From contig QPGO01000056.1 in NCBI GenBank assembly GCA_008632985.1, forward strand, positions 214,406-278,405: a stretch of DNA of 64,000 bases, written 5' to 3'. The stretch is from Psammoneis japonica. Its lineage: Eukaryota. This document shows, in pieces, positions 1 to 64,000 of the stretch. A model generated the notes under the pieces. That model ran no database searches and was not told the origin of the DNA. It saw only the letters and a list, made by a program, of their open reading frames with translations. Each line of letters begins with the position of its first letter. Positions within the stretch are counted from its first letter, which is position 1. The translations under genes were made by a program, and so were the position numbers.

Positions 1-697
1 GAGTTGCTGCAATCGCAGCAAGCATGGCTGCATCTTCCAAGACGTGCGTGCCGGCTGGTGCCAGTTGCATTAAGTCCGCCGTGCACTCGGCAACTTGACA
101 CTGATCGTGGGTGAGGTCGCCCACAAGACCGAAGTGGCGGCCGTCCCAAGGCTGCGGGTCACCAACCACCGTGATCGGACAAGTGGAGATTCGATGGGAA
201 ACTTGAATCTTTCCCGGGTCATTTCCAAGGCCCTGTGCGCGACAGTGGGTCACGACGGGCACAGGTGCGTCGTGACCGGACGCCGCGGTCAATCTTGTAA
301 ACAGCGCAGTGGGGCTGTAACGGGACTGGCCGTTTGCGACTGCGGCTGCGTCTGCCACAGCATTCGCGTGCGCACCGCGGTGCGGATCCAACGCCTGCGT
401 GGCGTAGAAATCTGCGCACGTGTGTGTGGCGCGTGGAAGAGGTGGCATGGCCACCGGTTGTCCATGGCCATGAACACTCGGTTGTCCGCCGGCTTGTGCC
501 GGTGGAACAGCCTGTGGTGGTGCTTGCGCGGCTGGAGGGGGCGGCTGTTGCTGCCCCTGTGGTGGGATTGGTGGCCCCTGAGGCTGGCCTTGTCCCTGCG
601 GCACTGGATGTACAGGTGGCGCTACGTTGGGAGCCTGAGGCTCCTCTGGAGCTGGCGCTCCTGGATTCGCTTGGGGAAAACCTCCTGGATTCAACAC
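1..697 (-). mobile_element. 5' part of gag-like ORF of a tyrosine-recombinase (DIRS-type) retroelement, runs off window start
   Basis: My minus-strand translation gives a Pro/Gln-rich N-terminus, then GKIQVSHRISTCPITVVGDPQPWDGRHFGLVGDLTHDQCQVA. This matches GVVQVFHHATQHPITVAGPAQPWDGQFFALAGDLTMRQCQLA in the YR element at ~58.6 kb. The region is TpA-poor. Confidence 0.7.
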
Positions 698-1021
698 ACT
701 CAATGGCAACTTCTTCTACGAAAACGAAAGAGAACAGCGGCGGAGGCATCCTGCGTCGAACCGACAGCGTTTTAATCTATCTACGGGCCGGCTTGCTGTT
801 GTTGTTTCCAAAGGAATGAGAGGAAACAAAGCAGCCGGTGAGAGAGGCGGCCAGGAAGTTCGGGAACTTTCAAATGGAATGGGGAATCTCGCCTTGCGGA
901 TTGTTCGAGGACAGTGAGACTGAAAATGACCTTGGCAAGTTTGTGCCTGCTTTTCTGTTTCGTTCGTTGCAGAGCGATGACCGATGATGCCTGTGGCTGA
1001 CCGATGACGTCAGATTGTAAA

Positions 1022-1197
1022 TGAAGAATTTACCATGTGGTTTTATCGGAAACAGTGTTTAGAACTGTGTGTTTGGCGATTCGGAACGGGAAGACTCCAT
1101 CCGAGATCTACTCACAATCTCAGAAATAGTGGCACGATGTTACAACGATTTTCTATAACTTTGCTCTCTAGCAAGCGACCACCGGGTAATTTGTTCA
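1022..1197 (+). repeat. 5' LTR of copia element 1
   Basis: Direct repeat of 7784-7959 with 14 differing nt in 176 by manual alignment; followed by the PBS-like motif at 1198-1214. Confidence 0.95.
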
Positions 1198-1884
1198 CTT
1201 TGTCAGAGCCATTGCCGCATGTGACGACAGTGGCAATGATTGCTGCGCTTGCGAACGATTCGCAATACGACCATTTGTTCCAACTTGTCAGAGATGACAT
1301 GAAAACATCGACGAACGTGAGATGACGTTCGTGCTTGACGAGCATGTAACTCCCAGGGCTAGTTCGGCCGTAATGCTTGTGGATGACAAAAGTGTCGACT
1401 GTCCTGATGTGTTTTGTGAGCGCAAACACGCGGACACAGAGCGCAAATTTGGATCTGGGACGCCATTTCCATGCCGAAGTTATCTCGGAAGCAACTGCGT
1501 GGCGACTTGAAATCGCCAAGTGAGCATACAAACACATCCAAGTTGAACATGTAGACACGACATGATTGACAAATTGTGCGTGTTGAACCTCACTGTTGGT
1601 CAATGTTGACCAGGGAACGAGCACGTCGCCAATGATCGGCACATGCATTGTTCGATCACGTAGATTGTAACAGCAGCCGTTGTATCTGAATTCCAGTGCA
1701 GACATTAATCCACGTGGATTAAACACAAACAGCCATCTGCAGACACGTTGATCGCAGTTGTGACGATTGCTTTTATGCAACGGTGGAAAAGCGATACGAA
1801 GTTCGCACACCTCACTCACTTTTCGTACACAACCACACAAAAGTTTGCGAGAACATCAAATTGCACCGTTCGTAACCATCAACC

Positions 1885-3375
1885 ATGGCAGCAGTCGCTG
1901 CAGCGATGCGTGCTGCCTGTGCCCGACTGGGGTTCACCGCGCAAGCAGCCGCGGCTTTAACCGATGAGCAGGGAATCGACTCAGTCGATGAACTGCGTCA
2001 TCTCGACGACCACGAGGTCGAGACCTCATGCAAGGTCATTCGTCACCCAGGAGGGGCTGTGGCAGGGAATCCGCCGGCAGGAGGGAACGCCCAACCCAAC
2101 CTGGGGACGTCAGTCCCGTTGCGAGCCGAGACCAATCTCAAGCTCACCGCGCATGCAGCTCGTCACTGCGAGTGCATGTCGCAGACGTTGCGAGCTGTCA
2201 ACATCAACCTTGCACGAGTGCGAGGCTGCCGACACTTCCGCACCACAGAGGAGACCTGCGTGCCACCCGAAACGCTGCCAACGATCATCAAGAAGGACTG
2301 GCCGAAGACGATCGAGTCGATTCAGGAGCATCTGCGGGCATGCCGAGGCGAGACGAAAATGCCGCCAGCGCACGTCATCCATGATGGCCAGGAAGCAACT
2401 CCCAAGGCTGATGATCCGGCCACCAACTGCGACAATCCTGTCGAGGAGATGATCGCGAGGGCCCCGCATTTCGCTGCTGGGAATGACCCTCAACCCACCG
2501 AAACGTTCGCGGCCGACAACATCAAAGTGTGGGAAATTGTTGCAGGCATTGCGCGAGAACACACGAGTTGGGCCCATGTCAAGTCGGCCCAGAGGAGTCA
2601 GGATGGCAGGACGGCCTGCCTGAACCCATGCAACCATTTCTTGGGCCCCAACAATGTAGACAACATGGCGAATGCCGCTGAAAAGCGCCTTGCCAGTTTG
2701 TCCCACCACGGGGAAAAGCGCAATTGGAACTTTGAGCGCTGCGTGCGAGTTCATGTTGAACAACATGCGATTCTGGATGGCTTGGCCCAGTGTGGTTATG
2801 CCGGGATCGACGCACGATCCAAGGTCCGCCATCTCCTTGCAAGTGTCAAGGACTTGTCGCTTGACTCAGTCAAGACGCAGATTGTGTCTAGCGCAATGTT
2901 GCGCAACGACTTTGATGCTTGCGTCATTCTGTTCAAGGACTTCATCAAGCAGTCCAAGCCAGACAATGACGCGAAACGTCTTCGTGTTGCGGCTCTCAAG
3001 GCTGGGAAGTGCAGACGAGAGGCTGTCATTCATGCCGATGATGTGGAGGACAAGTGCTGCCCTCCCAAAGAGTGCAGCAAGCTGTCTCCCCAGGCTGGGA
3101 AGAAGCTCAAGTCGCCACGCGACACACGTGGTGACACGAAAAGCGGCAAGGCCACGGCGGCCGGTGACGCCAAACAGATCAAGGCTCTGACCAAGACGGT
3201 TGCTGCTGTTTCAGCTCAGACAGACGATTCATCCGATGAAGGCAGCAGTGAATCTGAAACTGACGAGCCAATGAAGCCTCCGGCTGCCAAGCAGGATTGA
3301 AACCGCGACAACAAGGCGTTGATTCGCAAGGCTGCTCGCAAGCATGTCCCCAAGGCTGGATGTCGCAAGGAGTGA
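1885..3375 (+). pseudogene. copia gag, element 1 (internal TGA at 3298-3300, probably from CGA)
   Basis: 471-aa ORF with KDWPKT...MPPAHVI...HHGEKRNWNFERCV. It continues in frame through NRDNKALIR to TGA at 3373-3375. Confidence 0.85.
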
Positions 3376-6300
3376 CCACCAATGGTGGCTGTCATGCGGC
3401 TCAGTCCATTGCAGACTTTGCGCTTAACCCAGACAAAGGTTGAGGGACCATCGAATGCAGAGTCTCGCATGGACATCGACAGTCATGCAGACATGAGCAC
3501 ACTGGGCAAGCACGCTTTAATTTCACTTGACCATGACAGGCCAGTGGACATGGAAGGGTGCAACCCGACATTGGGTGCCAGCAAGCATCTGCGCACCGTC
3601 AGTGGAGCTGTCACTTGTGCCGATCCTCAGACGGGCCACCCACACGTCTTGGTTGTCCACCAAGCAGTCCATGTGCCACACCTTGAGCACAACTTGCTGT
3701 GTCCAATGCAGTTGTGGCTGAATGACGTGGAACTTTCATTAAAACCGAAGTTTCTGCTGAAAAAGCCCAACGACAAGGAACATGCGATTGTTGCCAAGGA
3801 CGCAAATGGCACCTCATTGACTGCACCTTTGGACCTGGAGGGAGTCTCGAGCTGCTTCCCCTCCAGTGTCCTGACTTTATCTCAACACGAGGATGCGGCC
3901 CAAGACGGGAGTGTGCACGAACTCACGCATGAGTCCCCGGAATGGGACCCCGCCTCCTCTGATTTCCACGCCAGGGAAGATGCCATGACCGATGCTCTTG
4001 GCAGAGTGCATGAGACCGGGGACGATGCACGTCCTCATGTGCACATTGTGAGCACGAAGCTCTCATGCACTGCAGCTCAAGAGACCTCAGACTCTCTGGG
4101 GAATCAGCCATTGCGTGACATTTCCAATGCATGCGATGACCGTTTGCTGCTGGCATCCATGAAACTGTCTTCGCTCAAGACGATGAAGCGCGGCTTCAAG
4201 GTTGACGCTGAACGTTTGGCCGAGAATTGGTCCATCAGCCTCAAGGATGCTCAGAACACTCTCAAGGTTACGACACAGCGTGGAGCTGGGACGGTTCTAC
4301 ATCCTGCGCTGTCGCGACGTTTCCGTGCCAATGATCGACAACTGCGACACAGGTGCATCTCAAAGGAGATGTACTCCGACACCATGTTCTCCTCTGTCAA
4401 GTCCAGGTGAGGGAATGTGTGCGCGCAAGTGTTCGCAATGTCCAATGGATGGGCACGCGCTTGTCCATTGAAGTCAAAACATCCAGCGCACGAGGCGTTG
4501 TCGTTGCTCTTCGTGCAAGAAGGCGTGCCCCATGCTGTGCCAGTGGACGGGGCGAGAGAAGAGACAATGGGGCAGTTTAGCAAGAAAGCCAGGGAGGCTG
4601 ATTGCCACACAAGACAAACTGAACCATGTGCCCCTTGGCCCAACACCGCAGAGGGCACAATTCGTGAACTCAAGAGAGGTGTTGGGCGCAAGATGGTTGA
4701 GTCACAGGCCCCAAAATGCCTGTGGGATGATTGCCTGGAACTGGAAGGCCTCATTGGGTCTAACGCCGCTCGAAGCATCTGTGAGCTTGACGGTGAAGTC
4801 CCGGAAACTGTTGTGTCCGGTCAGACGGCTGACATCTCGCACATGTGCGAACCAGGCTGGTGCGACTGGGTCATGTTTCGAGACACGGCAGTCTCATTTC
4901 CCGAGGACAAGGAAGTCCTGGGGCGATGTCCAGGTCCGAGCAGGGATGTGGGCCCAGCTGTGACGGCCAAGATGCTCAAGGAGAACGGACAGGCAGTCCA
5001 TCGCTCATCTCACAGGGCACCAACTCCGAGGAGCAGGGACACAAGACGCACATGGCGTTGCGTGAAAAGTTTGATGGGTTGACAGAGGTCAAGCTGGGCC
5101 CTGGCATGACCGTCGGGGACTTTGACGACCCTGGCGCAATTGCTCCCACCTTCAAACCGCACAAGGATGACGAGGAACAGGATGTTCCGTCTAGTGCCTC
5201 CGATGAGGATGACATGCCAGACGAAGCCTACGATCAACATGTCAACGCAGAAGCACTGCTGCCTCACGGGGACATGGAACAGACTGGGATGGTGAAGCGA
5301 CGTAAGCTCAATCCGGACGGCACACCCGCCGGACGGGCCAACCCAAACCCAATGCTTGACACTCGTGTGTGTGAGGTCGAGTTCCCTGATGGACAGAAAG
5401 TGGAATTCGCGGCGAATGTCATCGCTGAGAATGTGTTCGCACAGTGTGACAATGAAGGCAACCAGCACTTGTTGCCAGATGCAATCGTTGATCACAAGAC
5501 TGACGGGCATGCTGTCAAGAAGGAGGACGCCTTCATCCAAGGCAGTCGAGGACGTCGATCCATGCACAAGACTGCCAAAGGCTGGCATCTTTGCGTGCAA
5601 TGGAAAGACGGATCCACATCTTGGGAACGACTGTCCGACTTGAAGGAATCTAACCCAGTAGAAATGGCAGAGCATGCCAGGGCTAGATCTGCTGAGGATG
5701 AACCCGCATTTGCATGGTGGGTTCCCTTTGCCTTCAAGAAACGTCAGCAAATCATAGCCGCTGTGAACAAGCGACATCACAAGTGCACTCATGAGTGCGG
5801 GATGCGCATTCCCAAGACCTGTGAAGAGGCAGTCGAGATCGATGAGGCCAACGGCGACCGCTTGTGGCAGGACGCCGTAGACAAGGAGATCGAAGTCGTT
5901 GTGAAAGCCTTTGAGATTGTTGACGATGACGAGGAGCTTGTGGGTTGCCAGCATGTCCGCTGCCACTTGGTCTTTGATGTCAAACTACAAGACTTCAAGC
6001 GGAAGGCTCGTCATGTCGCAGGGGGACATGCCACTGAACCTCCAGCGACCCTGACGTACGCAAGCGTCGTCTCCCGTGAAAGTGCAAGGATTGCCTTCGC
6101 TCTGGCAGCTCTAAATGACTTGGAGGTTAAGGCTGCGGACATTGAGAATGCCTGTGTCACCGCACCTGACAGTGAGAAGATCACTGCAACTCTGGGACCT
6201 GAGTTTGGACCCAATGCTGGGAAGTGTGCCACAGTCAAGCACGCATTGTACGGATTGAAGAGTGCAGGTGCATCCTTCAGGAACCACTTGGCATCGTGCA

Positions 6301-7515
6301 TGCGTCATCTTGGTTGGGAACCATGTCTGGCTGATCCCGATGTGTGGATGAAGGCACAAGTTCGACCAGATGATGGGTTCCGCCACCATGCCTGTGCACT
6401 GTTGCATGTCGACGACGTGCTCATGGCACACCACGGCGCTGCGTTGGCGCTCAAGGAATTGGACCGATGCTTCAAGATGAAACCCGGATCCATCGGTGAC
6501 CCTGAGATGTGCCTTGGGGCGAAGATCCGTGAAGTGCAAATGCCGAACGGTGTCTGCGCGTGGAGCATGAGCTCCAGCAAGTGCATCCAACAGGCTGTTG
6601 GAAATGTTGAGGGGGTGTCTAGATGAGTCCACTCCCAGATGGACGTCACCACGCAAGGCAACGGCTCTGTTTCCCCGCGACTGTCGACCGGAGCTCGACA
6701 TTGCGCCAGAGCTCAGCGCAGAGCGGGCTCGATTTCATCAGTTGCAGGTGGGAGTCCTGCGCTGGATGGTGGAACTCGGACGAGTCGACCTCATGGCAGA
6801 GGTGTCCGAGCTTGCCTCATTCCTTGCCATGCCTGGAGAAGGTCATCTCGACGCAGTCCTGCATGTGTGCGGACACCTTGAGAATGGACATGACGCCACG
6901 TTAGCGTTCGATCCAACGCACCCGGACATCGACATGTCTGACTTTAAGGAATGTGATTGGCAGGCGTTTTACGGGGACGTTAAGGAGGCAATTCCGCCGA
7001 ATGCACCAGAAGCTCTGGGCAAGGACATTGATCTACGCCTGTTTGTAGATTCAGATCATGTGAATGACAAAGTGACGAGACGCTCTCGCACTGGTCATTT
7101 TGTCTGTTTGAACATGGCATTGGTTGCCTGGTTCTCCAAGCGCCAGAGTGCCATCGAGACTTCAGTCTTTGGTGCTGAGTTTGTGGCCATGAAGCAGGGC
7201 ATGGAAGCTTTGCGAGGCCCAAGGTACAAACTCAGGATGATGGGAGTCCCACTCAGCGGACCATCATGCATTTGTGGGGACAACATGTCAGTTGTCCACA
7301 ACACCCAAAGCCCAGAGTCGACTTTGAAGAAGAAGTCTAACTCTGCATGCTGCCATGCCGTTGGGGAGTCGGTGGCCATGGGTGAGTCCCTTGCAGGACA
7401 CATTAGATCGGAATGCAATCCAGCTGATCTTGCGACCAAGATCATGTGCAGTGGCATCAAGCGAGATGGCCTCGTTGGCACGATGCCACACGACACATGT
7501 GATGATTGGGGATGA
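3376..7515 (+). pseudogene. copia pol (protease, integrase, chromo-like segment, RT, RNase H), element 1, disrupted
   Basis: ORFs 3382-4410, 4417-5082, 4845-6626 and 6598-7515 join through one in-frame TGA and two frameshifts. Protease DSHAD is present; the RT YVDD motif reads HVDD (6405-6416). Confidence 0.92.
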
Positions 7516-7783: not shown

Positions 7784-7959
7784 TGAAGAATTTGCCATGT
7801 GGTTTTATCGGAAACAGTGTTCAGAACTGTGTGTTTGGCGATTCGGAACGGGAAGACTCCATCCAAGATCTGCTCACAATCTTAGAAACAGTGGCACGAT
7901 GTTACAATGATTTTCTATGACTTCACTCTCTAGCAAGCGACTGCGGGGTAATTTATTCA
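7784..7959 (+). repeat. 3' LTR of copia element 1
   Basis: Direct repeat of 1022-1197, preceded by polypurine tract GAGGGGAC (7776-7783). Confidence 0.95.
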
Positions 7960-7989
7960 CAAATCGATTCTTCCACTGGCCATCTGACC

Positions 7990-9215
7990 TCCCATGCTGA
8001 CCCTCTGTCTCCCTGATCATTCCCTTGCCATCGCCTTTCTTCCTGCTTTGCTTGGCGGCTTTGCCTTTGGGACCCGACGGCCACTTCCATCCCTTCCTTC
8101 CTGGTTGCTCTCCTTTGTCACTCCTTCCACTTTGCCTCCCACGGAGCTCAGCTGCCGCCCGGAGATGCCGCTGCTCTCCCTCGCCACTTGTGCTGTGCTT
8201 GTCCTCCTGGAGCAACCCTCACTTGAGCTTTCACCTCTGCATGATTTTCCACCATCACACCCCTGCTCTTGCCTGTGCCTCCACCAATTCTGCTTCTTCC
8301 TTGGCTGCTCTTGTGTCAAGTCTGTCAGTCTTGTTCCCAGCCCAGAGCCAGCCGCGTTTGTCACAACCACCACCAGCAAGTCATCGCTGCCACCCTTGCT
8401 GATGCTCCATCCAATGCACAAGTTTCTCCACCCTCTCTCCTGTCCCCACTCACTGGCCTCCCTCTTCACTCCTTCTCCCGCCACTTCCAGAGTTCTCCCC
8501 TTGCATCTGATGCCTGCATCATTGCTGCCCAGCGCAAACTCCGTGCCTTCCCATCCTTCCTCCTTCCCTTGTTGGCACTCCCTGTCCCTGCAGTCACGCC
8601 ATCCTCAACACTTGTGGTGATCATGCCTTCTCTTGCTGGCAAGGCCACAAACTCAATCCATCCAATGGTCTCTGGGACACTCTCTTCATTGTGGCCCAGC
8701 AGATCTCTTGGGACCCTTTGCCCAGCTCTGTCATTCCTCCAATGACATGCTTCTTGAGCATGCAAATCTCCTTCCCACCCGTCTGCTTCTCCATCCTGCC
8801 AATGTTGGCATTTCTGTGCCACCTCCAGCTTCTCTTTCTGCTCCCTCTCACCACCACTGTGTTGCTGCTGATGTTGCCGTCACCCAAGCTCCTTTTCGCC
8901 CTCCTCCAGGTCTGCCCACTCCCTCTTCCCCTGTTTTGGCTGGGGCACACCATTTGAGTGCAAGACTGCTGAAGTTTCTTGAGCCTTCTGCCTCTTCTTC
9001 TTGTGGATCCTTGGTTGCTGCTTCACCCAACAACAATGGCATCTTCCTTGTTCCCTTTGCCATTGATCACCTCGGTGCCAGTCTCCGCTTCTTTGGCCAT
9101 TGATTTCTCTTTGGCTCTTTGCTCTCCTCTGCCTGCTCCCAGCCCAAGCCTCCCTGGCCCTCCTCTTCTGACCTGTGCCACTCCAATGCTTCCTGTTCTG
9201 CCTTCCTCTGCACCT
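7990..9215 (+). mobile_element. 3' remnant of a restriction-like-endonuclease non-LTR retrotransposon (CRE/NeSL/R2-type)
   Basis: Fragmented frames give TCGDHAFSCWQGHK...LWDTLF (Zn-knuckle-like), then LHPANVG...CVAADVAVT...LVPFAIDHLG, resembling the RPAD...DVTV...PFxxDxxG RLE signature. Confidence 0.5.
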
Positions 9216-10617
9216 TGAGGACAGATCCATGGGGGTGAGGGTGCATGTTTAAGGAACCATGAATTTTTTGGAAAAACCCAGAGATGCACTGCACTGTGTG
9301 CATGCGCATTTGCCAAAAAAAACAGTGATGGGTCAAACTTTGTCCAAGTGCATTGACAATGGTTGTGACCATGCATGTGATGTTCAGCTTGTCAACTGCA
9401 GATGTGTCCACAGGTCTGGCCGATCAAACATCAACAGTCGGCATTTCCTGGAAAGTTGTGTCTTGTCCACCACAAGCAGTGCAATTTTGGCAAAAATCAG
9501 CATCAACTTCAACCTGGCAACAGGGAACAGGCCAATGAGCGGCATTGAAGCTTCAAACAAGCAGCTCTCACAGCAATCCAACAGCCCTGATGAGGGTTTG
9601 TTGAACACCTGAGTGTTTTGCATTGTTCCAAGACAGGTCCAAACAGCACGGCAAAGTGCAGGGAATTCCAGGCCCACAAATGTCCACCCTCACCCCCTTG
9701 GATCCATCCTCAACATCTCCATCTGCCCTTCTTTTTTCTGCCACGCCTGGAATCACCTTTCCACTGACTCATCTCCAGCTTTTTCTTCCAAATGCCTTGT
9801 TTCCTGTGTTCTGTGACTGTTCTGCTCTTCTGCTCTGCTGCAGCCACTTGTTCCATGCCTCCTTCTGCTGTTCCCTTCTGTTCTCAACAAGCTTTTCAAC
9901 TCTGTGCTTGGTTTGAAGATTCTGCCCAAGCAGAAAAAAGAAAAATCGAGGATGAACACTTGAGGATGAAATTGTGGCTCCAACAACCTCATGGAGCAGA
10001 AACCATTCCTGGACAAAGATGTCCAGTTTTTGAAATGTGCAATTTTTGCAGTTTGCATGCTTGGGCCACTTCAACTGGCCATTTCTGTGGCTCCCTCATC
10101 AAGTTGTTTGCAGCTGTGCATCAGCATCTTGACAGAAGATGAAGAGAAGCCAGTGGTGAGAAAACAACATGTTTCCTTTTGCTGTGGATGTGTCTCCATG
10201 CAGAGCCCCTTGCAGGAGCCAATGGACATGAGTCGTGATGATCGCTGTGCTGTTTTTTGTTTTTGTGAGGCAGCTCAGTGGCTTGAGAGAGCAAAACTGC
10301 ATCACAAATGACATGAGTGGAGCTGAGGGAACACAAGTGAATGCAGCACACAGCAAATCATGCACAACCAAAAACCTGTTCAATTCCTGTCACTCCCCAT
10401 TTTGCTGGAAGGAGCCACAGGAACCACATCATCACCAAAGGGCTTGGCAAAAGCACTGGAAACAAACTTCCAGGGTGCATGAGAGCAGAAATGACAGGAC
10501 AACAAAAGGGTGGAGCAATGCTTGCACAAGGCAGCACAATGCATGCACAACTTGAATTGCAGGACAGCAACAAGCTCCAAATCACAAGCAGCAGTCTTCT
10601 TGACAGCACCTTGCAAC

Positions 10618-10861
10618 ATGGAAAACCAGTCAAATGGGAACTTCTCTTGAGAAAGTGCAGTGTGGAGCACTTGTCCATTTTTCTTCTTGGGGTCATCTGT
10701 CAATGCCAGCACAAGATTTGTTGGGTGCACCCAGAGACAAATGGAAAACCAGTCAAATGGGAACTTCTTGAGAAAGTGCAGTGTGGAGCACTTGTCCATG
10801 TTTCTTGTTGGGGTCATCCATCAATGCCAGCACAAGATTTGTTGGGTGTGCTCAGAGACAA
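10618..10861 (+). repeat. Tandem duplication of ~122 bp
   Basis: ATGGAAAACCAGTCAAATGGGAACTTCT...CAGAGACA occurs at 10618-10740 and 10741-10861. Confidence 0.9.
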
Positions 10862-13800: not shown

Positions 13801-14082
13801 CAAATCCAAATTTCCAACTGCCACACGTTTTTGCATCTAAATCGCTTTGCAGAAAGTTTTTTTTTTCGTTTTTCTGGATTTTGTTGTTTGCTGCAATTTG
13901 CGTTTACACACCAGTTTGGTTGGTTGCCATGGCGGCAACTGCTCCCACTCCGTTGCTGGCTGCCACCACCTGCAATGGCAGGTCCTCACCCATTGGCACT
14001 GCCCATCCTTCCTCTCTCTCCTTTCTCTTTTCCTCTCTTTTGCATTTCTTGTTTTCCTCCCTGGACAAGTTTGTCTTCTCTC

Positions 14083-16556: not shown

Positions 16557-16634
16557 TTGACCATTTGCACCAACTTACTTCCTGCCTTTACCAACTTGCT
16601 GCTTGGCCAGTTTTGCAGTCCAACAACTTCTTGT

Positions 16635-49646: not shown

Positions 49647-49855
49647 GGTTTCCGTTCATCTGTCATTTTCATTGCATATCTTTTTGAGAACCTCGTTCAA
49701 AGCCGCTTCTCATAACAATCAAAAAGATTCATTTCGAAACGAACAGACATGCAAGACATCATCATCCCATCATCAGTCGTGACAGCAGGTGGCGTGTCGA
49801 TTTTGTGAGGCGCGATTGGTCCGATTTTGCCATTTCGGAACCCCCTAATAACACA

Positions 49856-49895
49856 TGACGTCATATTCTAACGGCGCGACTTCGCAGTGACGTCA
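49856..49895. promoter_or_regulatory. Two palindromic TGACGTCA (bZIP/CRE-type) sites upstream of ppsA
   Basis: TGACGTCA at 49856-63 and 49888-95, ~210-250 bp upstream of the ppsA ATG. Confidence 0.3.
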
Positions 49896-49929
49896 GAAAT
49901 GTCGGATTTGTGTTTCGCTCGGACCAAGG

Positions 49930-51868: not shown

Positions 51869-52048
51869 AGATATCATAGTCCATACAATAGGAGTAGACG
51901 CACCGCACATGACCTATTATAAGGTAACATTTAAAGCAAATGCAGTTTGGCCGAATGAAGGACACAGTACTGTCGCAAAGTATTCAAGCGCTTGAATGGT
52001 ATACAATAGAAAAACGTTCTCCAGGACAACGTCCATGGAACTACCTTT

Positions 52049-54177: not shown

Positions 54178-54748
54178 TGCCTTTGATACTCATCAAACGC
54201 GGCAAATGCGATTCGCTAGAGAGGCCACTGGAGATATACTGTAGGTAGCAACGAGACGGGGAGAAGGTTCAACGGTCTCAACGAATAATCAGAGCATTGC
54301 AAAAGAGCGGAACGATGAGCGGAAGTTGTGGCGGTGGCGGCGGGGGATGGCAAGAATCTGAACACGTCATCACTGCCATTGCTTCCATGACGTGGGTTTC
54401 TTCAAGGGGCACTTATTAGTTACTGTATTCAGCATTTGTCTTCTTTTTTTATCGAGCTCTTGGAGCGAGCTCGAGATCCAGGATCTTTCTTTCGCACAAA
54501 CGAAGAGACGGCTGAGCATATCCGCAAAAATTGCATCCTTGCTGATTGTGATGTCGTTCCAAGCAGCGTGATACTCATTTCTGTAGCTGCAATCTGCTCG
54601 TTTGGAAACAGTGTCATGCCTCTCGGGATCTCCTTGAGTGAGTTTCTCTTCGTTTTGCTGCATTGGCAGCGATGGTGTTTAGGAAATGTTCCAGTACCGT
54701 TTTCTCACGTTACTTTCATGTTTTCGTCTCTCTCTTTCACTCCATAGA

Positions 54749-56361
54749 CTCGAACATTTTTCAAGCAGGCTCCATACTGGAGGGAAGTGTCTACTTTGAC
54801 ATTAACAAGGAAGTGTCGGCGAAAGAATGCGTTGCTCTGCTGGAAGGATACGAAATCGCAAAGGTGGAATACGAAGACGTACACCAATCATCTGGCGACA
54901 CGCAACAGCAAGATCGTCACACGCGTATGGCAGAAGCGACACGACGATTGATTCAAATGAATATACCGCTTGACAATGACATGATTGTAAACAATAGGAT
55001 CCAGGCAGGAAGGTACCAGATGAAGTTTCAAGTGAATTTGCCAGAGGGGTTACCATCGTCCATGGAGGCTACTGGGCGTTCGTTTTCTGACCAATGTAGT
55101 ATTGCCTATGAAATACGTGCGCAGCTAAAAGGGTCTGGATGGATAAGCGACTACAAAGCCAAGCAACCAGTGACAATTGTGGCGAAGCCCCTGCAAAAGG
55201 AAGCGCTGCCTTTTCGCGGAGAGCCCGTTGAGAAACAAGTCCGCTCGTGTTGTTGCTGGAATCGAGGCCAGATTCTCTTTGGAGCACGCGTCCAAGATAC
55301 CATGTTGGACAAGGGAGAGAGTGTGAAAGTTTGTGTGTCTTGCAAGAATCACACCAACACTGCAGTGACTGCCATCCAAGCAACCCTCCAAGAAACACTC
55401 GAATGGTCTGCGCAGAGCCACCGCGAATTTAAAGTTCGTACACTAGCGACGGTCGACTTTCCCCAGTTTTCTTGGGAAACCGCATCCACTACAAGCAGCA
55501 TGGAGGAACTTCAAGAAATTCAAAAGGAGCTGGAGAATGGCACGCACTCTGGTACGGTCGTAATGCCGACGGTAAGACCAATGTCTTCTCTGCGGGTCCT
55601 TGCTCACCTGGAGCTCGCCCTTATCGTTTCGCATTTCAAACCATGTTTGACAGGACGCTTATGACACATTTGCAGGAAAACTCATTTCGTGTCAACACAC
55701 AATCAAGATTGTGGTCAAGACAGGTTGTTGCATTGACAATCCCGAGATTGAAATCCCCGTGAAAGCCGGACCCGTTCAAAACGGGCGCATCTCCCAACCC
55801 TCACAGCAGCAGCCTCCTGCTGACTTTGTGGATGGCGCTAACATTTCTGAGCCCGTTGCATGTTCATCACCTTTTGCTGTATTGGGAGGATCGCCGTACG
55901 AGCACAGTGGTGTTGGGCAGAAAGAAGAAGAAGATGTCGTCATTCCGCCCTCCTTGGAGCCACCACCGCCTTCCATGGCGCTTCTGTTCAAGGAATTGGA
56001 CGAATCTATCAACGACTACGACCTTGTCAAGAAAAGAGTAAACGATCGTGATTGGGAGACGGTATTTGATAGCATGACGCCAGCTGACTATGGAAAAGTA
56101 ATTAAGATGGTCGACTCGGACTTTGATCAACCGAAAGTGGCCGAATGCATTGCAGAAGCAATGGCCTCCAAATTTTCATGTGACTACTGCGTTGCCGCAG
56201 TTCGCGTTTCATCTGACTACAATCGCTCTACTGTGGTAGAGAAGGTGCTGCCGTACTGTGTGGATCTGTCGACAAACAAGAACAAGATTCTATCGGAACT
56301 CAGTGATTGGGAAAAGACGGTGACGGAACGCGCCTTCGCCAATGCGTTGAAAGGAAAGTAG
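54749..56361 (+). CDS. Arrestin-domain protein (5' exon(s) not resolved; intron 55572-55652)
   Basis: FQAGSILEGSVYF...LEGYE...GRYQMKFQVNLPEGLPSSM...CSIAYEIRAQL is an arrestin N-domain pattern, followed by a C-domain and helical tail. Confidence 0.75.
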
Positions 56362-56573
56362 GCTGTTTAAAGGATGCATGGATGAGATTGCAGAACCAAT
56401 CCGATGCGGCGTTGACCGCATCGATTTCTACATGCGAATAGGACGAGGGAAGGTCTGGCTCTGGGTTCTCGGAAAGACAGATGTCTCCAATAGTGTTTTT
56501 GTACTACAAACGTGATTGATTGTAGGCAACGTTACGCAGCAAATAAATATGTAGTTGAGTTGGGCGTGGTTGT

Positions 56574-57366
56574 CTACATGTTCCGCTGCTTATTGATTAT
56601 ATCGCCGATATTCATGTGCAACAGTTCGCGGTCGGCTCCTGCTGGGCTGAGCGAATACGCCGCTTGATGGATTCGGTCATGAGCAAAACGATACGCCGCC
56701 GGAGAGGAGACAAGACTGTCCCTTTCGAGAATGCCCTCCTTGACTGCAAGGCAAAGACTGCTGTCAAGATTTTGTGCTTCCACCTTGTATTCAGCCCTCT
56801 GACCGGATTTGTCTTGTACCGAAATTCCTTTCTTTGTTTCGTTGGCCTCGATAAACTCCTGGAGCAAATGAGCATCAAATCAAGAACCAATTCACGCCGC
56901 AAGAGTCAGGACAGACCGCTCCTCTTCAGATTGAAGACAACTACTTATTGATTTCATTGGCCCTGGGTCCACGACATTGTCAGATGTGGAAGCATTGGTT
57001 CGTTAGCGGTCGACATCCCATGTCCATCGAACTGCTCCCAATGAAAATGTTAGAAGGTCATCGTCAACAAGAGATTCAAGTAATCGGATAAAGAAAAACA
57101 CATTCTCTTCTGTCCTTTCGTGAATCACGCTCGTCAGCAACAGTGTATCTATGGCCTCCATTCCCAGAACGTCGGCTACGAGCTCATTGGCTGTCGCTGT
57201 TGAGATGTTGCCAAGCTGAATCTTTGACATTTTGACACTGTGGCAGTAAGTCCCTCAATTTGACGCAATCGTATAGCCAAGGGATGGCTGTGGTCCACTT
57301 CATTGTCATGATAGGAGCCAACATATCAAACGCAAAACGCCCCTTGAACCATGTGCGCAGCGGCAA
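56574..57366 (-). pseudogene. Fragmented AAA/STAND ATPase gene (multi-sensor kinase type)
   Basis: IQLGNIS...LVADVL...IHERTEENVFFFIRLLESL...WTWDVDR and YRFAHDRIHQAAYSL, split over several frames by stops and shifts. Confidence 0.65.
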
Positions 57367-57404
57367 AATGGATTTCTACAGCAATTTGATCATGCTACCC
57401 GATA

Positions 57405-57622
57405 CAAAAAGTCTGGAATATCATTCCTGCGTAGAATTTGTACCAGAAAAGCCAATAAAGTCTGGAATAGCGGGATTTTTCGTGTTTTTCTGGATATTCC
57501 TGGTACTGACTCTACACCAGATTCTACGTGTTTTTTGTCAAAATCGGATATTCCAGACTTTTTTGACCACCCTGGTGCTGATTCTACGACGGTTTCTACG
57601 CAGTTCAATGTTCCAGACTTCT
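57405..57622. repeat. Cluster of short inverted/direct repeats (AAGTCTGGAATA core)
   Basis: CAAAAAGTCTGGAATATC (57405-22) versus GATATTCCAGACTTTTTTG (57547-65); further copies near 57457 and 57607; CTGCGTAGAA versus TTCTACGCAG. Confidence 0.7.
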
Positions 57623-58834
57623 TGTGCAGGGTCGAAGGACATTCCGCCTGTGCCGACAAGAACTTCACAAAGTGCACCAAGAAAATCAAGAACAACTGTG
57701 ATGATGGAGAGGATGTCACCTCTGAACAACTCATGATTTGTGTTGAAAAGAAGTGCCAAGCCCTTGTTCTCAAGAAAAAGTGGAGCGTCCTGGCCAAGGA
57801 ACAAGAACAGATCGTCGCTCTTCGTGCAAAAATCAATGATCTCAAGTCTCAAGAACACTGGCCTCGTAAAGACCAACAAGGGGAGATGACCTCATCACCC
57901 GTTGATGATGCACCGGGAAATCACCCCCCGCATCTGCCACATTGAGCGCATTCAAGTTGGCGTTTGGAAGCGAGCTGCTGCTGCTCATTCTTCCGAAGAG
58001 CTTTGGCAGCAAGCCGAGTGGATGGTCTAAAAGCGCCATTGTGTTCGGCGGAGGACACCATCCGCCGCTGCACCTGTGAAGCTCGCAGGACAGTCACACG
58101 TCATGCACCAAGACGGCAATGTCGGAAACAATCCGCCGCCGGATGCCGCTGTGGCGGCACAACAACCCCAACAACCGATTCCGGCAGCCAACAACGCCCA
58201 GAACGTGCCGCCAGCACTGGTGCATCCCATGGTGCCGGCAGCACCAGGAGCAGCGGCACAACCTGCCGCAGCGCAGGGAGGGCAAGCCCCGGGAGGGGCT
58301 CCCCAACAGCCGGCACCGCAAGTGCCACTCGTGCCACCAGCAGGTCCCGTGCGGCAGGGAGTTCCAGTGCCACCGGCAAGGTCAGGATTGCTGCTCGCAC
58401 GCCACAAAGGATCTGTGCACTGGCAACTGTGCGGAAATCATGCAGGACTTCATGGCCCCACTGCAAGGGCAATCCCGCTGCAATCCCAACGTGCTGAGAA
58501 CCCGTGTTGGAGCAGCTTCTTCGCACGATTTGCCTGTGGCACTGGCGCAGCACTGCCGGGTGCAAGGAGGCAACAATGCGGGAGTTGTGCAGGTGTTTCA
58601 TCACGCAACCCAGCACCCGATCACGGTGGCAGGACCAGCACAACCGTGGGATGGACAATTCTTTGCGCTCGCAGGCGACCTGACGATGAGACAATGCCAA
58701 CTTGCACCCGTGACGACGCCTTTCAGCTGGCCCAACACGGCACGTGGGTGCCGACCAATGCAGCGCTGCAAGCTCACATGGTCACGACCCCGGAAGGATT
58801 GCACCCACAAGTGCAGCTGAACGACCCAGACGCG

Positions 58835-59230
58835 GACGTGTTCCAGCTCCAGGTGGGACCTCGTGCCACTGAACTGTGACATGATTGTTTTTCATCATCC
58901 GTCGCATGTTTCGCGCGCACATTTCTACGTGTTCTGTCATAAAAAATTGTTCCACACTGCCTGTTTTGCGAAGCCAAAGGCTTTCTGTCATCTGCACTTG
59001 TGTCAATAAAAATGCGCTGGGTGTGTTCTTTGATGTCTAAAGAGTGCACCCGGGCATGCTGTAAAGAATGCACTTCAAGTGTGGAGGAGGAGACACGTTT
59101 GCAAAATTGCCTCTTTTTCTGTTGGCGATCATTCATGTGTCCATTGCTTGACAATTTTACTGCGGAGCTCGCACGCAGAATTCCATGGGCCCAATGTCAC
59201 AAAAAGTCCCACCTGGGACTGGAACCCGTC
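58835..59230. mobile_element. 396-bp MITE / non-autonomous DNA transposon nested in YR-element gag
   Basis: 25-bp TIRs GACGTGTTCCAGCTCCAGGTGGGAC and GTCCCACCTGGGACTGGAACCCGTC (3 mismatches), CGCG duplicated on both sides. Excision restores gag LNDPDA|VEVRTRN. Confidence 0.85.
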
Positions 59231-61069
59231 CGCGGTTGAGGTCAGGACGCGGAACACCATGATGGTGCCATTCGCGTGTGTTGATCTCTTGCTTTCAACG
59301 CCGTTGATGCCAAAGCAAGCATTCACCCGGGTCCTGGGGGCTGTCACAGCTGCCAATGCGGTCAACGAATGCAGGCCACTTCTGGACTTTTTGAAAGTGG
59401 CGTGTTGTGCAACAGCATGGGACCAACATGTGTCCAAAGCAGCGCAAGCATGGCCAACGATGGTGCAGCCACCCAACGAAGTGCTCACTTGTTTCTTTGA
59501 TGCGATGGTGCAGCGTGACCTTCTGCACCACGTGGGCCAACCGCCGCAACCACGCCAGTTCGAACCAGTGGTCACGGCCATCAAGAGCTTAACAGCAGAA
59601 CAGTGCCAACAACGTTTAGATGCGGAAGCGCGCCAACAGGCGGCACAGCGCGGCAAGACACCGACGGAGTTCTGCGGAGAGTTTGGCGTTGCCAAACTCA
59701 TGCGTTTGTGCCAGGTGCATCACGAAGCCAACCTTCCACCACTCTGGGCGCAACTGGCGGCCTCTCCCAAGACTGGCCGAATTGCTGCCATCCAAAATGC
59801 AATCGACGAGCAACGGCAAGCACACCACGTGTGCTTCAGCGTGCCAGTGACCGTGAACCTGGTCACAAAACTCACCCAAGTCGACTTTGCTGGGCATGAC
59901 AAGGACGAGTTAACTCAGGGGATCACCCCCTTCTTGTTGGCATCACTGCACTGGAGCAAGCCGAGCAGACCACTTGTCGCAGCTCCATGTGTCAACAGAT
60001 TCATGGAGGTGATGGCACACCGTCCTTGGCGGATGCGCGTGTGTTGGAGGCCCCGGACGACGCCATGGTGGCCACTGCGATCCAGGCAGTTCAGCAGTCT
60101 TTCGACGGTTTGCGCATCGTTCTCTCAGCAGCCTTTGGCACAGCACATCCACTGGTGCAGTGGTTGACTCACGTGCGCCAGTCAATGGATGTCTGCGCGA
60201 ACGATTTGGCGGCGCAAGTGGTGTCGCACCCGACGTTGCCAGCGGACCTGCAACGTTGCGCGCAGGTAAAAATGTGCCATTGGTTCCAGGCACAAACGCA
60301 CTCACAAAACCCTGTCCCATTTCAACCGCTCCCAGTGGTGGCTGAGGCCGCACAAGGTGCCCACCATTGGCGTCTCGACCTGCCGACGTCTGTCCTTCAA
60401 CCGCCCACCACACCGCGTTCGCAGACTTCTGGGCAGCCACAGCCAGGACAAAACCGCGTCAATGTGCCTGGCGACAATTCCATCATCCACAACGAACAGT
60501 GCGACAAATGCTTCACGGTCTTGCGGGAGCGTCCCAACATACGTTCGTGCACCGTCAAGCAGCACTGCGCCCGTGACAATGTTGCCTTGCCCACGGATTC
60601 CCAAGGGGCGCCATGTTGTCTCCCATGCCATTTCATCAGACAGTGCAACAACAACTGCGGATCATGCGCCAATCATCATCACAGCCACATGGAGCAGGAG
60701 CAGGTCGACCTTCTCACTTGGGGTGCGCAACATTGGAAGACCGAATGGATCATCGGCAATGGTTCCTGCTCGGGGACATGGAACCAAGAGCCACTTCCCG
60801 CACGGGCACACAAGCCCATGCATCCACAACCCCCGCAAGTGGAGTCTAGAAAACGGCACGTCTGCCCCACAACACGTGGACAGGATGTGGCCGCATCAGC
60901 ACTGACTGATGAATTGGGCAAGCAAATTACACGCGATGCAAAATTGTTGCGCCTTAGAGGCCTCAGTTGCTTGTTGCGTCTGCGCAGTGGCAGAGGTGAC
61001 TGGGGACCATTGGTGACAACGCGACAGCATGCAGCACACCGAGTGCTCACCAGTTGCAAATGTTGAGGG

Positions 61070-62900
61070 GTGCCGGTCACTGTTGCAGACGAGCCATGGT
61101 CCAACGCTGAGCTCCAAGGTAGCATCGCTCGAGGACCACACAAGTCCGCCTGCAAACACATTGAGTTTTTGCGTGAAGACATGTCTGACCATGTCGACAA
61201 GGGTTTCTGGGTGGTTGTTCCATGCAACGACGTCAAGAAGGAACCCAATCTACAGCTGAGTCCCATCGGCGTTGTCCCACAACACGCACGTAGACCACGA
61301 CCGATTGTGGGTTGCACACTCTGTGGTGTTGATCCCTCTGCTCAGCCAAATGTGCCAATGGAATCCACGCAGTTCGGGCGCACGCTGGACCACATCCTTC
61401 GGTGCGTTCTCCTTGCCAATCCAAACAAGGGCCATGTCCATCTGACGAAGATTGACTCAGCGGATGGTTTCCACCGCATGCAGCTGGTGCCCGAGCAAGC
61501 ACCCACACCAGGTGTGGTTTTTCCCCGCCTTCCCGGGGAACCTCCCCTGGCAGCCATGCCAACTCGGTCACCCATGGGATGGTCCAACTCACCTCCGGCA
61601 TTTAGTGTGGTGACCGAGACGGTCGCCGACGTTGCCAATCGCCAGCTCGTGTGCAACCATCGGGCACCGGAACACCCACTCGAACCTTGCCTCGATGGCC
61701 GACCACCAAAGCACCACGCTGTTGCTGCTGACGTGAATCCGCCCATCGCTGTCCCAGTGCCAGACACGCCGGATCCACACCTCGCGCACCACCGCCGGCG
61801 GCATCTCCAACATGTCGACATCTACGTTGATGACTTCATCGGCACCGCCCAAGGCTCCAAACAATCGCTGCGCAACGTGCATCGCACGATCATGCACGCC
61901 ATTGACGATGCATTTCGTCCACTCGACGACCAAGATCACGCGAGTCGCAAGGAGCCAATCTCAGTCAAAAAGCTCCGCAAAGGCGACGCCACTTGGTCAA
62001 CGCAGAAGGAGGTCCTGGGGTGGATCATTGACACTTTGTCCATGACCATCCGCCTTGCGCCGCGATGCCGCGAGCGCCTCCGCACCACGCTGTACGAAGA
62101 GTTTCCCCGCCACTGCAAGCGGGCAGCGCTTGCCGACCTGCACAAGCTTCTTGGCGAACTGCGATCCCTCACGCCCGGCATTCCCGGGTCTCGCAATCTG
62201 TTCTCCGAACTCCAAGAAGCCTTGCTCCACACCAAACCCGACGGGCGAGTTCGTCTTGCCCGCAACTTTCACGACATGTTGGACGATTTTCGGTTGTTGT
62301 GCCACGGGCTCGATCTCCGCCCCACCCGCATCCAAGAACTTGTCCCCCTGTCGCCCACTGTCACGGGCTGCCATGATGCAGCCAGTCATGGCGCAGGTGG
62401 CATCCTTCTCCCTGCGCCGTCAGCGGTCGCACGCAGCACCACGCTGCATCACTCCACTGCTTGCCGTCGGAGACCACAACATGACGCCAGACCCATCGTC
62501 TGGCGCATGCATTTCCCTCAAGCAGTCACCGACCGCCTGTCCACTTTTAAGAATCCCCGCGGCCCTGTCACCAACACCGACTTGGAGTTGGTCAGCGGCA
62601 TTGTGCAATCCTGTGCCGCGGCGGACTGTTTCGATGTTTGAGAGCGCACAGTGCTTAACCGCACAGACAACACCGGCACTCTCTTTCGTCAACGCAAGGG
62701 CTCCACCACGACTGCGAAGGTCGCAGCACCCCTCCTTCGACACCAAGGTCACCACCAACGTTTCCACCGCTGCCTGTCTCTCCACGACTGCTTGCCGGGA
62801 CCGTTAAACACCGCTGCAGATGACGCCTCTCGCTTGCAACAATTGTCCAACCGTGCCTTCTTGCAACATTTTAACACTCACTGCCCACAGACTCCCTCTT
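61070..62900 (+). pseudogene. RT-RNase H of YR retroelement
   Basis: RT and RNase H motifs as above, interrupted by an in-frame TGA at 62639-41. Confidence 0.85.
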
Positions 62901-62929
62901 GGCGCCTTTGGACCCCTCCACCCGCGCTG

Positions 62930-64000
62930 CGTTACACGTGATCTCAGCGCTGTGCAACACGCCATTGCCCACGGTGTTGCCGCTTCTTCTGCCAGCTCCA
63001 GCAATGCCCACTGGGACCTCTGGCGAAGTTTCTGTGACGACTTGGCCCTCGACCCTCTCTTGCAAGACGTCAACGACCCAGTCATCTTTTTCCAAGTTTT
63101 CATGCACCGATTCCGTACAGGCGCCATCGCCCCACGTGGCAATCCCGTCCACGCACACACCGCTGAGGGTGCCTCACGGTCAATTGGCCAAACGTTCGCT
63201 GCAATGGGGTCCCTGGACCCGCGGCACACACTCCAAGGCAACATGGATTTCCGCATTAGCCGCCAAATCCGTTTCCACAAGAAAGAGGATCCTCGCCAGA
63301 CCGGGTCAAACCGGTCCCCGTCACTGTCCTCTTGTGGATTGCCCGTGCCGCTTCCCCAACCAACCATCCGGGCACCCAAGCCATCGCAGACATGACTGCT
63401 TTGGCCTTTTTCTTCCTCCTGCGGCCAGGTGAACACACCGCCACCCCTTCCGACACCACTCCATTTCGGTTGGGGGACGTTCGCCTCTCCGCGGGAGGCA
63501 CTCACCTCGATTTGTTCACCTGCGCCAATGAACACCTCGACACCGCCACCTTTGGCACGCTCACTTTTGCCACACAGAAGAACGGCGTGCGTGGCGAGGT
63601 GACAGGTCTTGGCCTGTCCGGACACCCTGACCTCTGTCCGACACGCGCCCTCATCCGTCGCGTGAAACATCTCCGCACCTTTGGCGCCGCACCAGACATG
63701 CCCCTGGTGTGTGCTTGCACAACAACACCTGGTGCCGTGTCTCTCCCGCCGATGTTGCCAGCATCCTGCGCACCGCAATTCTGGCAATCAGCCCCGCTGC
63801 GCTGGGTTTCACACCCGCCGATGTCTCCGCTCGCTGTTTGCGTGCGGCTGGTGCCATGGCCCTCCTGTGTGCCCATGTTGACACCGACGTGATCCGCCTC
63901 TTAGGCCGATGGCACTCCGACGAGATGCTCCGTTACCTCCACTTACAAGCAGAACCTGTCATGCGCAATTTCGCAACCCGCATGTTTGTGGGCGGCCAAT
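62930..64000 (+). pseudogene. Tyrosine recombinase of YR retroelement (frameshifted)
   Basis: LRPGEH (expected RPGEY), TLTFATQKNG, LCPTRAL, GRWHSDEMLRYLH with the catalytic Tyr. Confidence 0.85.

Follow-up and report, generated by a model that had tools for sequence, protein, structure and literature searches.

Probable TpA-to-TpG/CpA hypermutation in mobile-element DNA beside spared host genes of the diatom Psammoneis japonica

What has removed the dinucleotide TpA (TA) from the mobile DNA of a diatom, and left the adjacent host genes with theirs? This question was raised by a 64-kb stretch of contig QPGO01000056.1 of Psammoneis japonica (referred to as the window), which is a mosaic of mobile DNA and diatom host genes and includes three transposable elements (TEs; referred to as TE1, TE2, and TE3). 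The TA counts given in the original prediction for this DNA were reproduced: 0 in 1981-2650, 0 in 7961-9249, 36 in 1876-7515, and 12 in 29161-29460 (DIS3). The protein motifs that it had named were also all present in the translations: HVDD and NAC in TE1; HVDN, LHGLK, NAH, TCSSVV, and LRCKLR in TE2; RPGEH in TE3. TE1 retains LYGLK and RYKLR. We consider that these elements probably record a mutational process that changes TpA to TpG or CpA in chromosomal DNA, in mobile-element DNA, with adjacent host genes spared. All contrasts between tracts were made within this one window as the ratio of observed to expected dinucleotide frequency (O/E), and profiles had a resolution of 250 bp.

The O/E value of TA was 0.13 in TE1, 0.06 in a block at 7961-26400, 0.20 in TE2, 0.03 in a short island, and 0.12 in TE3, and the values for TG and CA were 1.3-1.8 in the depleted tracts versus 1.1-1.25 in host tracts. 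These five depleted tracts contained 35, 76, 64, 2, and 31 TAs, respectively, against means of 270, 1244, 331, 77, and 259 after mononucleotide shuffling, and even the lowest of the 300 shuffles per tract far exceeded the observed number in all five. When TA was set against TG plus CA, the counts were 208/7452 in the elements and 831/3295 in the host tracts (Fisher odds ratio of 0.11, p = 9e-214). Borders between depleted and host DNA were sharp at the resolution used, and TA O/E in the three host tracts was 0.47-0.60, which supports a restriction of TpA conversion to mobile-element DNA within the window. On the other hand, the accompanying claim that TE-derived tracts are uniformly depleted did not hold: the long terminal repeats (LTRs), leader, and 3' tail of both copia elements (TE1 and TE2) retain TAs. 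Noncoding sequence and all reading frames were equally affected, and neither AT nor AA/TT was depleted in the elements. The GC content was 0.53-0.59 in the copia and TE3 depleted tracts versus 0.47-0.48 in the host. Apart from TE1 and TE2, which are itemised below, the tracts compared were as follows.

7961-26400, block of 18.4 kb; TA O/E 0.06, CpG O/E 0.25, TG/CA O/E 1.7
49870-51032, island of 1.16 kb with zero TA, between two host genes
57600-64000, plus strand, TE3, a retroelement with a reverse transcriptase (RT)-like open reading frame (ORF) and a recombinase-like ORF; TA O/E 0.12; extends past the window end
1-1021, minus strand, fragment akin to the first ORF of TE3, with TE1 inserted alongside; TA O/E 0.24, CpG normal
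26800-34100, host control tract, SNAPC1-like and DIS3/Rrp44 genes; TA O/E 0.60
41000-49869, host control tract, GPI2, CPDase-like, GHKL ATPase, and phosphoenolpyruvate (PEP) synthase genes; TA O/E 0.57
51500-57597, host control tract, EF-hand membrane protein and arrestin-like protein genes; TA O/E 0.47

The kinship between 1-1021 and 57600-64000 was given by tblastx (summed E 5.5e-29). TE3 retains YVDD in its RT-like ORF and carries RPGEH in the recombinase-like one; its RVT_1 match (E 0.013) was below the curated cut-off. "DIRS-like" is our own reading of TE3 and not a database assignment. For the island, O/E values over 49950-51250 were 0.03 (TA) and 0.23 (CpG).

CpG O/E was 0.78-1.00 in TE1 to TE3, where TA O/E was already 0.12-0.20, so that the process acting on TA is separate from CpG decay, and faster. 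The block and the island were also poor in CpG (0.25 and 0.23, respectively), with a TG/CA O/E of 1.7-1.8, which suggests that they are methylated tracts of greater age, where the two palindromic dinucleotides have each decayed to TG/CA. As a side effect of composition, TA-poor DNA lacks TAA and TAG and contains long open frames on both strands and in several frames, such as 5010-5984, 39839-40738, and 58101-58781 (all minus strand) and many in 7961-26400; artefactual ORFs of this type could swell gene and protein predictions in genomes of this kind.

The direction of change was read from the pol ORF of TE2, the features of which are as follows (PBS, primer-binding site).

34157-34339, plus strand, 5' LTR of TE2 (copia), 183 bp; 15 TA, O/E 1.35
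34340-34351, PBS-like dodecamer, TTTATCAGAGCC
34460-40740, plus strand, TE2 body, comprising part of the leader, gag (34754-36310), and pol (36311-40723, with RVT_2); TA O/E 0.20, CpG O/E 1.0
40807-40989, plus strand, 3' LTR of TE2; 16 TA, O/E 1.44

Database homologues of this pol numbered 1911, and 120 listed ones were used for composition; the named proteins among those listed were copia proteins of Fragilaria crotonensis, and the best match had 69% identity. The alignment consisted of the first 45 of the 120 with at least 1280 residues, and a column was regarded as conserved at 80% or more. The tyrosine content of TE2 pol was 0.27%, versus a mean of 3.46% (range 1.71-4.82) in the 120 homologues, and both histidine and cysteine were raised. 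TE2 keeps 544 of the 636 conserved columns, yet none of the 24 conserved tyrosines: 14 became Cys, 9 His, and 1 Phe. The predicted direction, TA to TG or CA with two products in one ORF, was thereby substantiated. Among the 92 changes mapped to codons, single TA>TG steps numbered 27 and single TA>CA steps 18. Almost all single A>G steps in conserved columns followed T (27/30), and almost all T>C steps preceded A (18/19); the reverse direction was represented by 7 G>A (3 plain and 4 at CpG) and 3 C>T (1 plain and 2 at CpG). The RT box of TE2 reads HVDN, with D>N through CpG>CpA, and this copy is therefore not autonomous. Its Pfam scores have collapsed (RVT_2, E 5e-12), and no Pfam match to an integrase was found in TE2. 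TE1 was rejected as a source of the spectrum, being too distant from this homologue set (319 of 574 conserved columns kept); at the 24 conserved tyrosine columns, it has 4 tyrosines, 7 Cys, 7 His, and 6 other residues.

The copia family itself is not intrinsically poor in TA, and the copies in the window have lost theirs, because 77 of 80 related copia loci in metagenomes had a TA O/E of 0.53-0.92. The other three (contigs L017, L064, and L068) had values of 0.25-0.30 together with His or Cys at conserved tyrosine columns, and pairs of them differed by 7-16 TG-versus-CA double differences. L064 and L068 were 91% identical and had His/Cys states in common at all 4 comparable tyrosine columns; as judged from these two contigs, copies that are already mutated appear to persist or to be duplicated in nature. 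Furthermore, in one database protein homologous to TE2 pol (P0027), Cys, His, or Phe replaced 9 of the 24 conserved tyrosines, chiefly in its N-terminal region, suggesting that it is partly affected and that patchy or intermediate stages of the process occur in another assembly.

The two products were balanced. TG and CA had similar O/E values in every tract, and the occurrence of 27 TA>TG beside 18 TA>CA in TE2 pol confirmed that adenines of both strands are affected, as originally proposed. The order of TG and CA along TE2 formed 19 runs (22.6 expected), and same-strand runs of the type left by repeat-induced point mutation (RIP) were rejected, no clustering being present. The number of TAs per 250 bp was flat along the body, with no gradient. 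The flanking bases had a strong effect: the ratio of element interior to host was 0.00 for ATAT, 0.02 for ATAC, 0.03 for ATAG, 0.03 for GTAT, and 0.04 for CTAT, approximately 0.3 for CTAA, CTAG, TTAC, and TTAG, and 0.77 for TTAA. The preferred target is RTAY (5' purine, 3' pyrimidine), and TTAA is almost immune. This table was symmetric under reverse complementation, as a strand-symmetric process predicts. At tyrosine codons, a purine preceded the codon in 10 of 12 His outcomes versus 8 of 14 Cys outcomes, which suggests that the pyrimidine 3' of the edited A is decisive (T-A-Y), although these numbers are too small for reliance. The natural target of TadA is U-A-C in the tRNA anticodon loop, and early base editors derived from TadA favoured YAC.

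Evidence that the process acts after insertion came from the LTR pair of TE1.

1022-1198, plus strand, 5' LTR of TE1 (copia), 177 bp, 92% identical to 7784-7960; TA O/E 0.68
1199-1884, plus strand, leader, with the PBS-like sequence TTTGTCAGAGCC at 1199-1210; TA O/E 0.34, partly depleted
1885-7515, plus strand, gag-pol body with RVT_2, frames broken; TA O/E 0.07 (gag) and 0.15 (pol)
7784-7960, plus strand, 3' LTR of TE1; TA O/E 0.49

The LTRs of one element are identical at insertion. Those of TE1 had 14 mismatches: 11 at TA-loss positions, 2 of the CpG type, and 1 transversion. At seven positions, one LTR retained TA opposite TG or CA, each LTR having contributed some of these losses, and two further sites (4 positions) were TG versus CA, representing the independent loss of one ancestral TA in each LTR. 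Most of the divergence between these LTRs thus lies at TA sites, which indicates that the process probably works on DNA already inserted in the chromosome. The 11 losses among 28 TA site-copies stand against about one background change, which makes TA approximately two orders of magnitude more mutable than the other sites of the TE1 LTRs. TE1 sits amid other depleted DNA, and its ends are partly depleted over ~1 kb each, a weaker version of the contrast between body and ends described below for TE2. The PBS-like dodecamers of the two copia elements (TTTGTCAGAGCC in TE1 and TTTATCAGAGCC in TE2) differ by TA versus TG within the putative PBS.

Retroelements were not the only targets. Among 71 ORFs of the block (stop-to-stop, at least 110 amino acids), none matched a Pfam family above the curated cut-off (there were four weak matches at chance level, E of 0.05 or less), and a word-indexed search with one of them against longer proteins gave no match; relatives were found by an exhaustive phmmer search only. 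The minus-strand ORF at 21324-22595 thus had 135 homologues (best E 3e-74), 3 of the 14 relatives scanned contained Plavaka (PF18759), and tblastn was collinear with the relatives over the following feature, with their Plavaka part at ~23457-23942.

21268-24554, minus strand, transposase relic of the Plavaka/CACTA type, inside the block

In the 424-amino-acid ORF of this relic, tyrosine made up 0.71%, versus 1.55-4.68% in 10 relatives, and the 4 conserved tyrosines have become 2 Cys and 1 His, with 1 kept. Transposons that move as DNA by cut and paste pass through neither RNA nor cDNA. The depletion of this relic therefore means that editing coupled to reverse transcription is not the general cause. 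Elsewhere in the block, tandem duplications were found at 10618-10862 (units of ~121 bp, 90-93% identity) and 20989-21142 (~80 bp, 82%).

TE2 gave a different picture at its ends. Its LTRs differ at 2 of 183 positions, one being a TA->CA change in an ATAT context, and the element is flanked by AGT at 34154-34156 and 40990-40992. A contig of sequencing run X1 joins 34156 to 40993, without the element and one AGT (bases 41005-41010, 6 bp, are also missing). Because this empty-site form occurs in the same run, the insertion of TE2 is recent, and the finding fits a second haplotype or subpopulation without TE2. TAs were retained in the LTRs, in the first 120-240 bp of the leader, and in the 67-83 bp immediately upstream of the 3' LTR. 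Irrespective of the copy in which the damage originated, it reached the body of the TE2 lineage and not its ends. In run X1, 1383 contigs at least 80% alike were aligned on 32001-52000, and 40 of 1418 variant places were listed. Among the 22 listed places in TE2 and the island, the window had TA against TG/CA in 3 and the reverse in 3, 7 were of the CpG type, and 9 were other changes. Many such contigs overlie TE2, a depth that is not a copy number. The depth of contigs from run X2 over the TE2 body was 0-0.8, but the data type of X2 is a guess, and no inference on expression is drawn from this value.

A closely similar signature has been described once, in a preprint on the chlorarachniophyte Bigelowiella natans (Mettrop et al., bioRxiv 10.64898/2026.01.13.699255), the accessible part of which is the basis of what follows. 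Nuclear mutations in its 15 mutation-accumulation lines numbered 302, and 231 of them were located in two integrated viral regions; all but one of the latter (230) were A>G or T>C, with TpA as the site of every GC-biased change. The rate was ~6e-7 per site per generation, and hypermutation occurred in some lines only. The larger region is single copy and transcriptionally silent, and RT and DDE transposase domains were overrepresented among the TpA-poor coding sequences of this species. As the enzyme, the authors proposed an ADAT2-like DNA adenine deaminase, which is unproven (bioRxiv 10.64898/2026.01.13.699255). The features of that system also found here were A:T>G:C transitions, the restriction to TpA, and the confinement to mobile DNA: in both organisms, changes are nearly exclusively A>G or T>C at TpA, with TpG or CpA as the product according to strand, and only foreign or mobile DNA is affected, with a normal genome alongside and, over the long term, low TpA and high CpA plus TpG. 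An origin in situ has indirect support here from the divergence of the TE1 LTRs at TA and from the depleted DNA transposon relic; the TE2 body may have been damaged before or after its insertion. The differences were also clear. The host is a stramenopile diatom and not a rhizarian; the targets are LTR retrotransposons, a DIRS-like element, and a DNA transposon relic in place of giant-virus and virophage inserts; depletion is deeper (O/E 0.03-0.20 versus a Rho of 0.45 for the B. natans viral region); and the diatom has a fossil signature only, whereas live events were recorded in B. natans. The strong preference for RTAY over YTAR and the spared LTRs and ends were seen in the diatom and do not appear in the accessible part of the B. 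natans preprint.

Among other systems, fungal RIP resembles the diatom signature in its dinucleotide-specific transitions, its action on both strands, the rapid inactivation of mobile elements, and a diagnostic skew, and both could act on an insertion within very few generations. However, RIP changes C>T at CpA and creates TpA, while in the diatom TpA is destroyed and GC increases. As for the duplication trigger of RIP, contigs at least 80% alike overlie TE2, while its 183-bp LTRs escaped, an escape compatible with a length threshold; the sparing of contiguous LTRs in the manner of TE2 is not known from fungal RIP. APOBEC3 and ADAR are alike host deaminases that hypermutate retroelements. Proviruses edited by APOBEC3 have intact LTRs and an edited body, recalling TE2, but the APOBEC3 signature is G>A on one strand with a gradient, and that of the diatom is A>G/T>C, strand-symmetric, and flat. 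ADARs favour a 5' U (bioRxiv 10.64898/2026.01.13.699255), but their signature is sense-strand A>G in retroelements only, and here 18 TA>CA changes were found and a DNA transposon is affected. The decay of 5-methylcytosine at CpG similarly turns a palindromic dinucleotide into TG/CA in silenced DNA, but the substrate here is TpA, and CpG loss is an additional, slower process limited to the block and island. The claimed distinctness from RIP, CpG decay, and GC-biased conversion was thus upheld by the opposite direction of change, the CpG O/E of 0.78-1.00, and the specificity for context, respectively.

In the mechanism that we propose, A:T would be converted to G:C on either strand of the palindromic TpA, at a rate approximately two orders of magnitude above that of background substitution and also above that of CpG decay. 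Each TAY tyrosine codon would become Cys or His, so that elements are killed quickly. In a young, isolated insertion, the body would be affected, and the terminal 250-420 bp at either end, including the LTRs, would be spared. Chemically, an enzyme may deaminate adenine to hypoxanthine within T-A(-Y), and it may be directed by whether the element is in silent chromatin or is foreign DNA, not by repetition as such; the process would be of the same kind as the TpA-only hypermutation of B. natans, as far as that is described in the accessible part of the preprint. Of the two parts of the original claim, namely that a process recognises repeats or heterochromatin and that it converts A:T to G:C at TpA, the latter stood for mobile DNA by virtue of the spectrum, the LTR pair, and the relic. 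The former was not supported as regards repeats as such: the TE2 LTRs, which are also repeated, escape, and the main target in B. natans is reported as single copy.

Several observations weigh against this mechanism. The evidence is a fossil signature in one window, with no de novo event among it, and no deaminase domain was present among the host ORFs of the window that were scanned. Mobile origin was demonstrated for only ~3.3 kb of the 18-kb block, the rest being without a recognisable domain. Moreover, 47 of the 92 TE2 changes are not at TA (19 multi-step changes, 14 transversions, 6 CpG changes, and 8 other transitions); TE2 has therefore also decayed, or diverged from the reference set, in the ordinary way, and the spectrum is a fossil record mixed with ordinary divergence, less clean than that of mutation-accumulation lines. 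Most pointedly, the TE2 LTRs are unaffected (1 loss among 32 TA site-copies) despite many TAs in the most mutable contexts: the context-summed expectation is 2.7 TAs per LTR versus the 15-16 present. The spared LTRs thus require an extra assumption, either that the body is affected first or that the damage was inherited from a mutated template.

The latter assumption is the most serious rival, although it concerns the timing in TE2 only and we regard it as rather unlikely: the body was already depleted of TA in the RNA template, belonging to a dead element mobilised in trans by intact relatives, and because copying requires functional cis-acting ends, the LTRs, leader, and 3' tail would be intact. 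An in-situ process would still exist in this case. In its favour, the LTRs are TA-rich and identical at 181 of 183 positions beside a depleted body; the empty-site allele in the same run marks a recent insertion; the spared parts are exactly the cis-acting ones (LTR, PBS plus leader, and 67-83 bp before the 3' LTR); and the states common to L064 and L068 (91% identity, 4/4 columns) indicate that mutated copies duplicate or persist. However, selection over many rounds would keep only essential TAs, and even non-essential ones are kept in the LTRs (TA O/E 1.4). In addition, at 3 of the 20 best-supported variant places of TE2, the overlapping contigs all have TA where the window has TG/CA, which hints that some losses may be private to this copy, the contigs being diverged paralogues and the sign a weak one. 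Loss in situ after insertion would also be feasible at the rates in the B. natans preprint: a ~70% loss of TA would take ~1e5 generations, a span in which the 366 bp of LTR would be expected to acquire well under one background change. A further explanation, which we consider improbable, places the editing at the stage of retrotransposition, with an ADAR-, ADAT-, or APOBEC-like enzyme acting on RNA or single-stranded cDNA, so that LTRs, being double-stranded early, are spared. It would account for the hypermutated body, intact LTRs, and recent insertion of TE2. In retroviral biology, minus-strand DNA just downstream of the PBS is single-stranded for the shortest time, and TAs persist in TE2 for ~240 bp past the PBS, as this explanation predicts. 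On the other hand, editing of RNA or the minus strand gives one product, and both strands are similarly represented here (27 TG and 18 CA; 14 Cys and 9 His); no 5'-3' gradient is present, and the 70 bp upstream of the 3' LTR, for which the longest exposure is expected, still contain 4 TAs. The DNA transposon relic within the most depleted block and the divergence of the TE1 LTRs at TA sites post-insertion also argue against it, as do the B. natans events, which according to the preprint arise in integrated chromosomal DNA.

The remaining alternatives dispense with a dedicated process. Selection against UpA in element RNA (for example, against UpA-cleaving RNases), under which low TA would be adaptive, has a next to negligible probability: UpA suppression is reported to be widespread in cytoplasmic RNAs and RNA viruses (PMC3829696), and host genes are also moderately poor in TA (O/E 0.47-0.60), but TE2 has lost all 24 conserved tyrosines, including that of the RT motif YVDD (now HVDN), its Pfam matches have collapsed (RVT_2 at E 5e-12, integrase unmatched), its relatives have a TA O/E of 0.53-0.92, and noncoding sequence and all frames are affected alike. 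A technical artefact, in which dense base modification at TpA in silenced elements led a basecaller or polisher to miscall A as G, is a very remote prospect. Strand-wise miscalling of a modified palindrome could give random TG/CA, specific to one dinucleotide and to silent DNA, and the sequencing platforms of the assembly and of runs X1 to X3 are not on record. Against this, X1 contains 55% of the sampled 31-mers of 33000-42000, a stretch of which only about a quarter is host flank, 258 of its 1383 contigs are at least 99% alike, and contigs reach 315 kb, beyond raw error-prone reads; G>A (287) and C>T (264) in X1 show no excess relative to A>G (252) and T>C (263); TE2 also has damage outside TA, namely D>N in the RT box via CpG>CpA and 14 transversions; and 3 independent metagenome contigs and one database protein carry this signature too. 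A by-product of repair or recombination in heterochromatin, through GC-biased conversion or patches of an error-prone polymerase and without dedicated deamination, is a remote prospect. The net change is AT>GC, with GC of 0.53-0.59 in the copia elements and TE3 versus 0.47-0.48 in the host, and the X1 depth over TE2, not being a copy number, nevertheless points to many similar sequences available for conversion. However, A>G occurred 27 times after T versus 3 times otherwise, ATAT was erased and TTAA kept, and AT and AA/TT were not depleted; to our knowledge, biased gene conversion is not context-specific. As sole causes, RIP, CpG decay, GC-biased conversion, UpA selection, and APOBEC/ADAR editing were ruled out on this evidence.

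Some features of the host tracts are of separate interest. The top matches of the PEP synthase gene (46837-49059, minus strand) were without names (76-78% identity), and the best named match was from Nitzschia inconspicua (74%); beyond the diatom matches (67-78% identity), bacterial ones came next at ~60%, those with names being from Nannocystaceae and Myxococcales. This order of matches hints at a bacterial origin of the diatom gene. Contigs of run X2, the data type of which is guessed, skip 33384-33485 and 42125-42203, both of which have GT..AG ends; these intervals look like spliced introns of host genes, the latter lying within GPI2.

The claim that the phenomenon is undescribed in diatoms stood in part: outside subscription journals, which were beyond the coverage, no report of TpA loss in diatom transposons was found (a match to "TpA" in PMC4504042 was the word "Tpase" and was discarded), but the same signature is described in the chlorarachniophyte preprint. 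TpA hypermutation in P. japonica is therefore best filed as a further case of a kind of process described once before, with a different lineage and different targets. What is new here is the rule for flanking bases, the deeper depletion, the loss of all conserved TE2 tyrosines, and the escape of the LTR ends of a young insertion. The RTAY preference, the immunity of TTAA, and the spared LTR ends are testable constraints on the enzyme and on the targeting signal.

It is possible, although we lean slightly away from this wider proposal, that diatoms and chlorarachniophytes share a genome defence at the DNA level, in which a nuclear adenine deaminase or an equivalent pathway reads T-A-Y on either strand and affects the body first and the LTRs later. 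If so, it would be aimed at newly silenced mobile or viral DNA and would destroy tyrosine codons before the empty site disappears; the process would be ancient within the SAR clade (stramenopiles, alveolates, and rhizarians) and would represent a natural A-to-G editor of double-stranded DNA. If the TpA process is real and enzymatic, A-to-G change at TpA would form a second great class of hypermutation defence beside the C-to-T class (RIP and APOBEC), and its occurrence in two distant algal lineages would point to a widespread, overlooked mechanism. A possible natural adenine editor of chromosomal DNA would also be of interest for base editing. For diatoms, the finding bears on TE annotations rich in long, stop-free, functionless ORFs, on differences of orders of magnitude in local mutation rate within one genome, and on how transposon load may be controlled in a major group of primary producers.

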